NCBI GenBank assembly: GCA_050732875.1 | Contig: JBOHRQ010000005.1 | Location: forward strand, 4,173 to 68,172 | Reading direction: 5' to 3' | Length of the DNA: 64,000 nucleotides | Source of the DNA: Gemmatimonadota bacterium | GTDB lineage: Bacteria; Gemmatimonadota; Gemmatimonadetes; JACCXV01; JAHWKZ01 | Shown: positions 16,289 to 17,713 of the stretch, piece after piece | Layout of the letters: each line of letters starts with the position of its first letter | Numbering within the stretch: position 1 is the first letter of the stretch | The notes under the pieces: generated by a model | Seen by the model: the letters and a program-made list of their open reading frames with translations, nothing else | What the model was told of the DNA's origin: nothing | Databases searched by the model: none | Made by a program: the position numbers and the translations under genes

Positions 16289-16676
16289 GGTGCAAGGACC
16301 ACCGTAGTTCCGAGAACAAATCTGGCTATATGCTGGGACACCCGGTTGATGCACCGGTACTCGCCACTAGGCTGATGCGGCCGAAGAAGGTGGCAGTGAA
16401 AATCCGGTGCGGACGGGCAATCAGCAGGAAAGGCTCGAATGCTCGAGGTCAATCGCATCCAAGTTTGACCGAGAGCTGGCTTTCGATTCCCACGAAGGGA
16501 AGCGGAGGATGCGCGGGCGAGACGCTCTTCGTCCGGTTCGAGAATCCTCAGAGACTGCACGCCAGACCGCCGGCGCCTGCCGGCGGATGATACAGTCCGG
16601 ACTGCATGGCAACATGCAGAGCGCGGCAGAAATGATCGCGCCCACCGTCACGCCCGTGACGGTGAGTAACAAATCG
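16289..16676 (+). mobile_element. group I intron 1 in 23S rRNA (after E. coli U1917), 388 nt, no credible ORF
   Basis: Follows exon ...GUAACUAU and ends in G before AACGGU. Guide GUAGUU (16304-16309) pairs with exon AACUAU with a U-G wobble. P7 GACUG 16553-57 / CAGUC 16593-97. Core strings CAGAGACUGCACGCC and GAUACAGUCCGGAC. Confidence 0.85.
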
Positions 16677-16682
16677 AACGGT

Positions 16683-16912
16683 CAACCTTAGAGGCCGTTC
16701 TGAAATCCGGCTATATGCTGGAAACTCCGTCGAATCCGGCGCTACCAGCCTGACGCCAGTCGGGCGGTGACAATGCGACCGGTGCGGACAATCAGCAGGA
16801 AAGACCGGTGATCGGTCAATCGATCGCCGGAATCCTCAGAGGCCATACGCCGGACACGCACTGCGTGAAGAGATGGTCCGATCTGCATGGCGACATGCAG
16901 CTAACACAAATG
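16683..16912 (+). mobile_element. group I intron 2 in 23S rRNA (after E. coli U1923), 230 nt, paralogue of intron 1
   Basis: Follows the 6-nt exon AACGGU (16677-16682) and ends in G before CCUAAGG. Guide GCCGUU (16694-16699) pairs with AACGGU. P7 GGCCAU 16841-46 / AUGGUC 16873-78. Shares blocks GGCTATATGCTGG, CAATCAGCAGGAAAG, GAATCCTCAGAG, CTGCATGGCRACATGCAG with intron 1. Confidence 0.85.
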
Positions 16913-16940
16913 CCTAAGGTAGCGAAATTCCTTGTCGGGT

Positions 16941-17713
16941 AAGACAACCAACTTGCCCACTTCGGGAGCGATTCCGACTTAAACCCGGCTCATAACGGAG
17001 AAACCGCCAGCTTGACCCCCACCCTCGATAGGAGTGGTGGAGTGTCCGGACTCGGTGATTCCGTGGGAAGTCGGCGTTGCGAGACATCGATCGTGACGCT
17101 TGACCCCGTAACGACTGATCGTCCTTCGGGACGTGAGATCGATGGCCCTGTCGGGCCGCAACAGAGCCCGGCAAATTCATGGCCGCGATCAGACGCCGGC
17201 CCCTTGTGCAGTGCCGAGCAGTACCATGCCGTCTACATCTCCGGCTACGCTGACGGAGAGGGGTGCTTCACCGTTTCCATTTCGCCACGAGCGACCTTGC
17301 GAGTGGGATGGGAGGTGAGGCCCAGCTTTTCGGTCAGCCAGAATGGCGATCGGGCGGAGGTACTGAATCTTCTCAAGGACTACTTCGGATGCGGCAGCAT
17401 CCGACCCGACCGCAGCGACAAGACGCTCAAGTGGGAGACTCGTCGACTCGACGACATCGTCGATCGCGTGATCCCGCACTTCGAGCGATACCCGCTGCTA
17501 TCGCGAAAGCGACACGATTTCGAAAGCTTTGCGACCGTCTGTAAAATGATGGTGGCCGGAGCCCACCGAGATCGATCGGGTCTACGCGACATCGTACGAC
17601 TCGCTCATTCGATGAACTTGGGCGGGAAACGACGTTACGCGGCAGAAGAGATCCTGGGGACACTGCGAAGGGTGAAGGAATAGTCTGCGCCACTGGAAAC
17701 AGTGGATGACGCG
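16941..17713 (+). mobile_element. group I intron 3 in 23S rRNA (after E. coli U1951), 773 nt, carries a LAGLIDADG homing endonuclease ORF
   Basis: Follows exon ...GUCGGGU and ends in G before AAGUUCCGACCUGCACGAAUGG. P7 CAGAC 17190-94 / GUCUG 17683-87. AAUAGUC J8/7-like element at 17679-17685. Confidence 0.85.
17204..17683 (+). CDS. single-motif LAGLIDADG homing endonuclease (I-CreI/I-CeuI-like homodimer type), intron-encoded
   Basis: Track ORF 17012..17683. Motif YISGYADGEGCF about 10 codons after in-frame TTG 17204. Downstream FERYPLLSRKRHDFESF...RLAHSMN typical of the family. No in-frame ATG or GTG nearby, so the start is uncertain. Confidence 0.8.
   Translation: MCSAEQYHAVYISGYADGEGCFTVSISPRATLRVGWEVRPSFSVSQNGDRAEVLNLLKDYFGCGSIRPDRSDKTLKWETRRLDDIVDRVIPHFERYPLLSRKRHDFESFATVCKMMVAGAHRDRSGLRDIVRLAHSMNLGGKRRYAAEEILGTLRRVKE

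Follow-up and report, generated by a model that had tools for sequence, protein, structure and literature searches.

Organization of the interrupted 23S rRNA gene

The DNA analysed here is a stretch of 64,000 nucleotides (the window) taken from one contig of a metagenome-type assembly. It has a GC content of 67.5%, encodes RND transporters, and contains a 23S rRNA gene with insertions at three places. The gene and its surroundings comprise the following features.

14250–18665, forward strand: 23S rRNA gene with three introns, 4416 nt, or 3025 nt once spliced in silico
16289–16676, forward strand: intron 1, assigned to group I with Rfam Intron_gpI; site L1917, 388 nt, no ORF
16677–16682, forward strand: 6-nt exon AACGGU, E. 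coli positions 1918–1923, the 3' strand of helix 69
16683–16912, forward strand: intron 2, assigned to group I with Rfam Intron_gpI; site L1923, 230 nt, no ORF
16913–16940, forward strand: 28-nt exon CCUAAGGUAGCGAAAUUCCUUGUCGGGU, E. coli positions 1924–1951
16941–17713, forward strand: intron 3, assigned to group I (putatively IA-like) from homology and comparative structure; site L1951, 773 nt, its P8 loop holding a LAGLIDADG gene
17204–17683, forward strand: LAGLIDADG homing endonuclease gene, 159 codons from TTG 17204, start codon uncertain
18803–18919, forward strand: 5S rRNA, downstream of the 23S gene (Rfam 5S_rRNA, 108.8 bits)

The Rfam model LSU_rRNA_bacteria matches the whole of 14250–18665 (model positions 1–2925, 2665.7 bits). 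A preliminary description of this DNA had placed here a split 23S gene of about 4.4 kb, cut at 16288/16289, 16682/16683 and 16940/16941, and all of these coordinates proved correct in the sequence. The insertion sites fall after E. coli U1917, U1923 and U1951 in standard numbering; the E. coli 23S annotation begins one base early, and its positions 1918, 1924 and 1952 correspond to these. The upstream exon text GGCCGUAACUAU stops at 16288, and the downstream exon text AAGUUCCGACC restarts at 17714. A spliced-alignment DP recovered 34/34 of the exon bases 1918–1951 with 0 mismatches and with three gaps, at 1917, 1923 and 1951. When the inserts are removed, the resulting 3025-nt 23S is colinear with annotated E. 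coli 23S from end to end, at 73% identity, and matches it exactly in the junction region. The 34-nt exon known from Coxiella is thus divided by a third intron into 6 and 28 nt, with 1391 nt added in all, as had been proposed. Each insert also follows a U (U1917, U1923, U1951) and ends in a G (G16676, G16912, G17713), again in agreement with the earlier reading.

The closest relative of this 23S rRNA lies on a Gemmatimonadetes-labelled contig (95.3% identity over the 3' exon part, 952 nt). Judged by sequence, the source bacterium probably belongs to the Gemmatimonadota.

Introns 1 and 2 share a compact core without P2

The structural elements assigned within the first two introns are listed below.

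16283–91 with 16301–09, forward strand: intron 1 P1, AACUAUGGU with ACCGUAGUU, including U1917•G16304
16296–16300, forward strand: intron 1 candidate P10 guide, GGACC, read from the sequence
16553–57/16593–97, forward strand: intron 1 P7, GACUG/CAGUC
16602–16619, forward strand: intron 1 P9
16620–16664, forward strand: intron 1 3' extension, two hairpins, from folding
16686–91, forward strand: intron 2 P10 guide CCUUAG, 6 bp with exon CUAAGG
16694–99, forward strand: intron 2 P1 guide GCCGUU, pairing with AACGGU and including U1923•G16694
16841–46/16873–78, forward strand: intron 2 P7, GGCCAU/AUGGUC
16883–16900, forward strand: intron 2 P9

Both introns were matched by Rfam Intron_gpI. The score of intron 2 (64.1 bits, E 1.5e-15) exceeds the gathering score of 50, and that of intron 1 (48.3 bits, E 8.4e-11), obtained over the full model (1–253), lies 1.7 bits below it. 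In intron 1, P5/P6 and the region following P9 contain large additional insertions. Guides containing a U-G wobble had been claimed for both introns and were found as described: GUAGUU (16304–09) pairs with AACUAU of the 5' exon, and GCCGUU pairs with 6/6 bases of the 6-nt exon. The P7 pairings that had been put forward for these two introns also hold.

Introns 1 and 2 are ORF-less and have the compact core, lacking P2, of the introns that many bacteria carry at L1917, L1923, and L1931. In a tree of 59 ORF-less introns (100 bootstraps), intron 1 falls among the L1917 introns from other bacteria (73.5% identity to that of genome L061 and 70.2% to that of L070), and intron 2 clusters with ORF-less L1923 introns from other phyla. 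Over its 3' 85 nt, intron 2 shares 90.6% identity with the L1923 intron found in L160, an independent assembly whose 23S is 95% identical to the gene in the window across the 3' exon part.

Two possible origins of intron 2 were also considered. A recent copying of intron 1 is not supported, given that the two introns are only 61.8% identical and that the tree groups introns mostly by site. A repeated origin of L1923 introns by site switching from L1917 or L1931 is likewise not supported, as no real mixed-site clade reaches 60%. Sites had been mixed in an earlier, smaller tree; in the 59-intron tree, the L1923 intron of one genome (L057) alone sits among L1931 introns, without bootstrap support.

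Comparative structure of intron 3

Intron 3 aligned with more than 70 inserts at L1951 in blastn searches (E about 1e-110). The Rfam Intron_gpI check that had been suggested for all three inserts succeeded for introns 1 and 2 and failed for intron 3, which had no Rfam match in the window at the gathering score or at E≤10. The ORF-less L160 homologue of intron 3 gave 18.7 bits (E 0.02) against RF00028 on one occasion and nothing in a narrower search. Since RF00028 could not decide the type of intron 3, comparative structure was used instead, based on an alignment of intron 3 with 70 homologous L1951 inserts (71 sequences) from many phyla. Taking an absent covariance-model match as refutation, as the preliminary description had advised, would have led to the wrongful rejection of this intron. 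The elements assigned are as follows.

16950–16958, forward strand: internal guide, AACUU (putative P10) 16950–54 and GCCC (P1) 16955–58
16985–16989, forward strand: P3, 5' strand CCGGC; partner GCCGG 17195–17199
16996–17063, forward strand: P4, CGGAG 16996–17000/UUCCG 17059–63, enclosing P5 (17004–06/17053–55) and its extension
17113–17116, forward strand: probable P7, 5' strand GACU within the invariant CGUAACGACU; partner AGUC 17682–17685
17117–17194, forward strand: insertion between P7 and P3', with hairpins 17120–32 and 17137–17190, then the joiner AGAC
17201–17215, forward strand: P8, 5' strand; partner 17658–17672; the ORF occupies the loop
17687–17713, forward strand: P9.0, GCG 17687–89/CGC 17710–12, enclosing P9 (17690–95/17700–05) with a GAAA loop; terminal G 17713

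The GCCC guide of intron 3, which was overlooked in the first reading, pairs with exon GGGU (16937–40) and includes U1951•G16955. Among 68 homologues this P1 is 94% paired, and the U•G is present in 67. The adjacent AACUU may pair with AAGUU of the 3' exon (17714–18) as P10, a pairing that is weaker in relatives.

Support for the core comes from the 71 aligned sequences, in which P2 is 97% paired with 154 double-change cells, P3 is 100% paired with 9, P4 is 100% paired with 38, and the base of P8 is 94% paired with 99. P5 is also 100% paired; P5 and P6 are paired yet nearly invariant. P9.0 and P9 were predicted independently by RNAalifold, with 7 of 11 pairs compensatory, and 97.8% of their cells are paired, with 159 double-change cells compared to 52±8 in shuffles (0/500); slid controls for these two helices were 31–47% paired. 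Across the tested helices of intron 3, shifted controls were 2–63% paired, versus 94–100% for P3, P4, P8, P9.0, and P9. The terminal G is present in 71/71 homologues, and the 3' splice site is fixed because P9.0 stops one base before that G. Every tested core helix is intact in the window sequence itself.

The P7 that had been proposed for intron 3, CAGAC (17190–94) with GUCUG (17683–87), is present in the sequence but is not supported by the 71 homologues. Across them it is only 78% paired, and G17192 is replaced by C, U or A in 33/71 while the proposed partner never changes. CAGAC sits instead in the joiner that follows the inserted hairpins within 17117–17194, and P7 is most likely GACU/AGUC (17113–16/17682–85). 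This pairing is found in 71/71 sequences and neither strand varies, hence the absence of a covariation signal; it agrees with the Rfam consensus P7 (AGACUA/UAGUCU) and stands in the correct order relative to P3' and P8. The inserted segment has an MFE of −36.1 kcal/mol, and counterpart hairpins occur in relatives, in an alignment too gappy for pair counts. These two predicted, stable hairpins may be P7.1/P7.2-like, a name that follows the anatomy of subgroup IA. Intron 3 differs in type from introns 1 and 2; it possesses a P2, an additional pair of predicted hairpins separating P7 from P3', and an endonuclease gene.

Together, the Rfam matches of introns 1 and 2 and the comparative fold of intron 3 bear out the earlier assignment of group I introns to all three sites. 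These structures also address whether the inserts could be intervening sequences (IVSs) excised by RNase III-type processing without ligation, which would yield a fragmented 23S as with enterobacterial or Coxiella IVSs. According to a passage in PMC4990558, insertions in the 23S genes of bacteria are more commonly fragmenting IVSs. IVSs, however, replace helix tips with a long hairpin, whereas the inserts described here possess group I cores and exon-pairing guides, show the 5'-junction U and 3'-end G, and sit at universally conserved single bases of helices 69–71, where a break would free a 6-nt piece. We thus give the IVS explanation almost no credence.

The endonuclease gene of intron 3

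The reading frame in the P8 loop of intron 3, of the single-motif LAGLIDADG type, matches the Pfam family LAGLIDADG_1 (PF00961) with 84.6 bits (1e-23; cut-off 23.1) over profile positions 1–101 of 102, and matches to LAGLIDADG proteins in the PDB reach 2e-36. Relatives are 54–75% identical in full-length matches, and 84% in a partial match (L075); in all 71 relatives with recovered context, the gene is located at L1951. The stop codon, TAG 17681–83, overlaps J8/7–P7' of the ribozyme. Close relatives start at an ATG or GTG six codons upstream, where CCG is found here. With this start codon lost, the endonuclease may be decaying.

Comparison with the ORF-less L1951 intron of L160 (294 nt, 84.8% identity to intron 3 outside the ORF) shows the ORF to be cleanly inserted into the P8 loop: in L160, the same P8 stem closes on a 5-nt loop. 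The two introns also show compensatory differences in P9.0 (GCG/CGC versus GUG/CAC) and in P9.

These observations bear on a second alternative, in which at least one insert is a dead relic and this rrl copy is a pseudogene or gives defective ribosomes, with another copy working. Consistent with such decay are the score of intron 1 below the Rfam gathering threshold together with its large insertions, the lack of an Rfam match for intron 3, and the lost endonuclease start codon. Yet the exon sequence is all intact within a full-length rRNA model match, no tested core helix of intron 3 is damaged, each of the three guides still matches its exon perfectly at the splice site, and the endonuclease frame has no internal stops and covers the full Pfam domain. 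Overall, we consider a relic improbable.

The same sites are occupied in other genomes

The L1951 endonuclease is encoded in at least 116 species genomes, and an insert at L1923 is present in at least 119. The full arrangement occurs in L057, the Gammaproteobacteria MAG MFD09671.bin.2.85, which has introns of 352, 273 and 702 nt at L1917, L1923 and L1951, respectively, the last one encoding the endonuclease, together with the 6-nt exon AACGGU and two Rfam Intron_gpI matches (63.5 and 66.9 bits). Two more genomes, L123 and L176, have L1917 and L1923 introns separated by the 6-nt exon. All three are long-read MAGs; they differ from the window in belonging to other phyla and in intron identities of only about 57–74%. 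The preliminary description had called introns in bacterial rRNA rare and had implied that the arrangement is unique. Both statements go too far, and public genomes contradict the rarity: the same sites, the triple and the 6-nt exon recur in public MAGs. We found no papers describing L057, L123 or L176, which are unannotated public genomes. A literature search combining L1923 with group I introns returned nothing, and the chloroplast precedent described below surfaced via site numbers.

Some automatic parses of these genes were rejected. That of L057 (150 + 475 nt) arose from a chance AACGGT/CGGT match, and inspection by eye together with Rfam gave L1917+L1923. Parses of L090, L094, L121, and L147 as '1919+1923' had the same cause, the actual sites being L1911+L1923.

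The other genomes also help in judging whether the locus could be an assembly chimera that joins the rRNA operons of different community members, in which case the introns would not share one gene. Metagenome assemblies classically break or form chimeras at rRNA genes, and the contig of the close relative L160 breaks inside its L1923 intron. Against this, the three inserts occupy 1.4 kb inside a contig of 101 kb, the rRNA halves on either side agree with each other, and GC content is uniform (0.58–0.60 in introns, 0.58 in exons). Moreover, the independent L160 assembly has homologous L1923 and L1951 introns adjacent to each other, and the long-read MAGs contain the triple (L057) and the 6-nt exon (L123, L176). 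A chimera is therefore very improbable. We conclude, with high confidence, that three independent group I introns occupy the helix 69–71 region of one 23S gene.

Comparison with known systems

In bacterial rRNA, group I introns have been regarded as oddities of Coxiella, Thermotoga, Simkania, a few cyanobacteria and, lately, CPR bacteria. In Coxiella, compared here by published description, L1917 and L1951 are likewise occupied and the L1917 intron is ORF-less; the 34-nt exon is uninterrupted there, whereas the L1923 intron splits it here. The Coxiella L1917 intron is said, in a paper title, to be without a terminal G, which all three introns described here possess. A table in PMC1995217 gives the Coxiella L1951 intron as ~720 nt with a LAGLIDADG endonuclease of ~157 aa (773 nt and 159 aa here) and the L1917 intron as ORF-less, and a statement in PMC4990558 has both introns removed by splicing from the 23S rRNA precursor.

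Published rRNA genes with several introns come from CPR bacteria, from cyanobacteria, and from chloroplasts (PMC11270868, PMC1995217, PMC4487195). The chloroplast rrl of Tydemania expeditiones has group I introns at 1917, 1923, and 1931 (PMC4487195), and so resembles the present gene in having three such introns in the helix 69–71 stretch and a 6-nt exon between the L1917 and L1923 introns. It differs in being organellar, in its third site (1931 rather than 1951), and in carrying LAGLIDADG genes in 3/3 introns (776–1049 nt), versus 1/3 here. The LSU rRNA of Synechococcus sp. C9, with group I introns at L1917, L1931, and L2593 (Haugen et al. 2007, PMC1995217), likewise combines three introns in a bacterial 23S gene, P2-less L1917/L1931 introns of the type of introns 1 and 2, and a single-motif LAGLIDADG; its sites differ, however, endonuclease genes are present in all three introns, and there is no micro-exon. 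In CPR 23S genes, group I introns that carry LAGLIDADG_1 genes are concentrated at 1917, 1931, 1952 (= 1951), 2593, 2604, and 2657, and many CPR rRNA genes contain several insertions (Tsurumaki et al. 2024, PMC11270868). Position 1923 is missing from the frequent CPR sites listed there, and the window is not CPR-like in its GC content, its RND transporters, or its Gemmatimonadetes-like 23S. Given that the intron types and the exact arrangement are already present in other uncultured bacteria, and that a similar chloroplast case has been published, the locus does not represent a new kind of element.

Proposed splicing and implications

Group I anatomy suggests how a normal 23S rRNA could be produced from this gene. 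Within the precursor rRNA, each intron would fold as its own ribozyme and bind its 5' exon via the internal guide, with the U•G wobble marking the splice site. Two guanosine-initiated transesterifications would then remove each intron, ending at its terminal G, and exon ligation would yield the normal 23S. In intron 1, the candidate P10 guide GGACC would form 5 bp with GGUCC, which is present only after the removal of intron 2, and 4 bp with the unspliced GGUCA; L1917 relatives have the equivalent ACCG, GACC or AACCGUU immediately 5' of GUAGUU. Because the best P10 of intron 1 (GGACC/GGUCC) requires excision of intron 2, removal of intron 2 before intron 1 may be slightly favoured, with either order possible. 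In keeping with the L1951 location shared by its 71 placed relatives, the L1951 endonuclease would be expected to cut intron-less 23S genes at the 1951 site, thereby spreading intron 3.

A wider reading, which we regard as possible but rather unlikely, is that the helix 69–71 stretch in non-CPR soil and groundwater bacteria harbours largely undescribed, multi-phylum, site-specific lineages of group I introns at L1911, L1917, L1923, L1931, and L1951, in many combinations. The ORF-less introns 1 and 2 would then persist and spread by riding in the L1951 endonuclease's co-conversion tract, the 1.4-kb cluster would behave as one composite mobile element, and intron 2 would have to be spliced before intron 1 on account of the 6-nt exon.

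Such 4.4-kb genes are prone to mis-handling by rRNA gene callers and length filters, PCR and probe sites around 1900–1960 are disrupted by the introns, and short-read assemblies break at intron sites, as in L160. The 6-nt exon between two ribozymes provides a compact natural test case for exon sharing and splicing order, and the reciprocal presence and absence of the endonuclease gene between the window and L160 illustrates the gain–loss cycle of homing endonucleases. The intersubunit-bridge region of 23S rRNA emerges as a recurrent landing pad for up to three introns among uncultured bacteria of the Actinomycetota, Acidimicrobiia, Acidobacteriota, Gemmatimonadota, Gammaproteobacteria, Planctomycetota, and other groups.

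Conserved 23S rRNA text is interrupted at three sites

The preliminary description placed three group I introns (introns 1, 2 and 3; 16289-16676, 16683-16912 and 16941-17713) in the universally conserved text of helices 69-71, and every coordinate of this interruption was borne out by sequence inspection, spliced alignment and comparison with E. coli. Sites are designated by the E. coli 23S position that precedes the insertion (L1917, L1923 and L1951).

Features of the rRNA locus in the window
14250-18665, 23S rRNA gene (Rfam)
16677-16682, exon AACGGU
16913-16940, exon CCUAAGGUAGCGAAAUUCCUUGUCGGGU
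18803-18919, 5S gene (Rfam)

On inspection, the exon text 5' of intron 1 reads ...GGCCGUAACUAU with its last base at 16288, and the exon resumes as AAGUUCCGACCUGCACGAAUGG from 17714. A spliced-alignment routine matched E. coli 1918-1951 perfectly at 34/34 bases, with gaps of 388, 230 and 773 nt. Deleting the inserts in silico yielded a 3025-nt RNA whose end-to-end alignment with an annotated E. coli 23S shows 73% identity, rising to full identity in the junction region. (Numbering in that annotation begins one base early, so that 1918/1924/1952 in it correspond to the standard 1917/1923/1951.) The intact state of the exons, guides and core helices makes a dead relic or pseudogene unlikely. An assembly chimera is likewise unlikely, as composition is uniform, the inserts lie inside a 101-kb contig and the same layout occurs in independent assemblies.

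The 64-kb window contains no 16S rRNA gene by Rfam, leaving the 23S-5S pair unlinked from 16S within positions 1-64000; an alpha/beta-hydrolase gene ends ~400 nt upstream of the 23S. Relative to E. coli, the 23S carries a 78-nt extra segment in domain I (~14530-14607, after E. coli ~278) and a second of 14 nt after ~542, both probably ordinary helix expansions. ARAGORN predicted two tRNAs, a tRNA-Ser(cga) at 11686-11765 that falls in a 498-codon ORF encoding amine-oxidase domains and, at 53046-53130, a tRNA-Asp of 85 nt.

Introns 1 and 2 match the group I model

Rfam matches had been anticipated for all three inserts and were obtained for two. Intron 2 scored 64.1 bits with Intron_gpI (16639-16900, E 1.5e-15), above the gathering score of 50, and intron 1 scored 48.3 bits (16279-16619, E 8.4e-11); both hits covered the full model. 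Intron 3 had no Rfam match. The internal guides and P7 pairings proposed for introns 1 and 2 were found where expected. The group I anatomy of the inserts contradicts a fragmenting intervening sequence.

The substrate strand of intron 2 P1 is the entire 6-nt exon, and the adjoining P10 guide, CCUUAG (16686-91), is complementary to the downstream exon CUAAGG. In intron 1, GGACC (16296-300) lies directly 5' of the P1 guide; equivalent elements pair with exon GGUCC in L1917 introns of genomes that have no L1923 intron. Because the window exon reads GGUCA until removal of intron 2 creates GGUCC, we infer a mild preference for splicing of intron 2 before intron 1.

Comparative structure of intron 3

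Base pairs were counted across the aligned non-coding parts of 71 L1951 inserts. P1 is formed by exon GGGU with GCCC 16955-58, its U•G wobble kept in 67/68. P3 (16985-89/17195-99) and P4 (16996-17000/17059-63) were each 100% paired with compensatory changes, P2 was 97% paired (154 double-change cells) and the base of P8 (17201-05/17668-72) 94% paired (99 cells). RNAalifold independently predicted P9.0 and P9 (17687-17712), which were 97.8% paired with 159 double-change cells versus 52±8 in shuffled alignments (0/500); slid controls paired at 31-47%. P9.0 stops immediately 5' of the terminal G17713, thus fixing the 3' splice site.

The P7 originally proposed, CAGAC 17190-94/GUCUG 17683-87, was ruled out, being only 78% paired with uncompensated one-strand changes in 33/71 inserts. 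The invariant GACU 17113-16/AGUC 17682-85 matches the Rfam consensus P7 (AGACUA/UAGUCU) in the right topological order and is the probable P7. Two stable hairpins are predicted between P7 and P3', where P7.1/P7.2 of subgroup IA introns are located. Together, the comparative helices and this P7 mark intron 3 as a group I intron of a type invisible to RF00028.

The intron 3 endonuclease and a close relative

The intron 3 ORF encodes a full LAGLIDADG_1 domain (Pfam 84.6 bits) with PDB relatives down to 2e-36. Searching GTDB genomes, one per species, with this protein returned at least 116 relatives; among the 80 loci fetched, all with enough context lie in 23S genes after U1951. The frame has no internal stop and is open from the second intron codon. 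Expression of the predicted protein is uncertain because the ATG/GTG start of the closest relatives, six codons upstream of TTG 17204, is CCG in the window (17186-17206), leaving TTG 17204 or a far-upstream start as candidates. In many other L1951 loci (L003, L005 and L007 among them) the endonuclease frame has no stop inside the intron and reaches the 3' exon by way of P7', P9.0 and P9. Coding sequence and ribozyme core therefore overlap there, and Haugen et al. noted something similar for cyanobacterial introns (PMC1995217).

L160, a contig labelled Gemmatimonadetes, has a 23S with 95.3% identity to the 3' exon part (952 nt) of the window 23S. Its 294-nt, ORF-less L1951 intron shares 84.8% identity with intron 3 once the ORF is set aside, with compensatory differences in P9.0 and P9. 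P8 there is a simple hairpin, CCCCUC-GAACA-GAGGG, and the window ORF has therefore been inserted cleanly into the P8 loop. Conversely, a LAGLIDADG-like frame occurs at the end of the L160 L1923 intron and is absent from intron 2. This reversal, with a LAGLIDADG-like frame at L1923 in L160 and the endonuclease gene at L1951 in the window, is what a homing endonuclease gene gain-loss cycle would predict, and it speaks against an assembly artefact as the source of the L1923-L1951 pair. The L160 contig (region 1-480) opens inside its L1923 intron, which would fit a break in a short-read assembly.

Distribution and relationships of the introns

Several precedents are published: three group I introns in Synechococcus sp. 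C9 23S and a 720-nt Coxiella L1951 intron with a 157-aa endonuclease (PMC1995217); LAGLIDADG-bearing introns of CPR bacteria, concentrated at 1917, 1931, 1952 and other sites (PMC11270868); and introns at 1917, 1923 and 1931 in Tydemania chloroplast rrl (PMC4487195), the first two of which delimit the same 6-nt exon as the window's. We found no published description of the window's arrangement in a non-CPR bacterium.

Such introns are far less unusual than first supposed, many endonuclease-fetched loci holding further introns within 35 nt. These include the doubles L1917+L1951 (the Coxiella pattern), L1923+L1951 and L1931+L1951, and the triples L1917+L1931+L1951 (L062, L065, L068, L069) and L1923+L1931+L1951 (L039). 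L057, a gammaproteobacterial long-read MAG, has the window's own triple and 6-nt exon (upstream introns 63.5 and 66.9 bits, Rfam). Some L1917 (L068) and L1931 (L045, L063, L067, L069, L076) inserts apparently end in A or C rather than G, recalling the Coxiella L1917 intron, which is reported to lack a terminal G; boundary ambiguity of the parse could explain these ends.

When genomes were scanned for 'G + CCUAAGGUAGCGAAAUUCC', in which a terminal G immediately precedes position 1924, at least 119 species genomes of many phyla matched. Among the matches listed, parsable loci comprised at least 63 with L1923 alone and at least 25 with L1923+L1951; L123 and L176 combine L1917 and L1923 around the 6-nt exon, and four Acidimicrobiaceae MAGs carry an intron after U1911, a 12-nt exon and then the L1923 intron. 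The U1911 insert (L090, 4886-5635; equivalents in L094, L121, L147) is group-I-like and LAGLIDADG-containing, with borders GGCCGU|AAGCAC...AAGUG|AACUAUAACGGU and guide GCGGCU; site L1911 goes unmentioned in the publications consulted.

Introns 1 and 2 have long identical core blocks in common, yet their overall identity is only 61.8%. When 59 ORF-less introns of sites L1917, L1923 and L1931 were placed in a neighbour-joining tree, intron 1 fell among L1917 introns and intron 2 among L1923 introns of other phyla, and no real mixed-site clade reached 60% bootstrap. This grouping by site indicates that each of introns 1-3 belongs to a site-specific lineage. Recent copying of intron 1 into intron 2 was dropped on the same identity and tree evidence. 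The L057 L1923 intron (4479-4751) has its closest matches (79%) among L1931 introns of related Gammaproteobacteria (L062/L065) rather than among other L1923 introns, a hint, without bootstrap support, that the insertion site may have switched.

Overall, the reading of three group I introns is supported, whereas the first P7 of intron 3, its detectability by Rfam and the presumed rarity did not stand. The window 23S gene represents this three-intron, 6-nt-exon arrangement of helices 69-71 in a bacterium and in well-preserved form; it also suggests that uncultured bacteria outside the CPR harbour such introns widely, a distribution little described so far.
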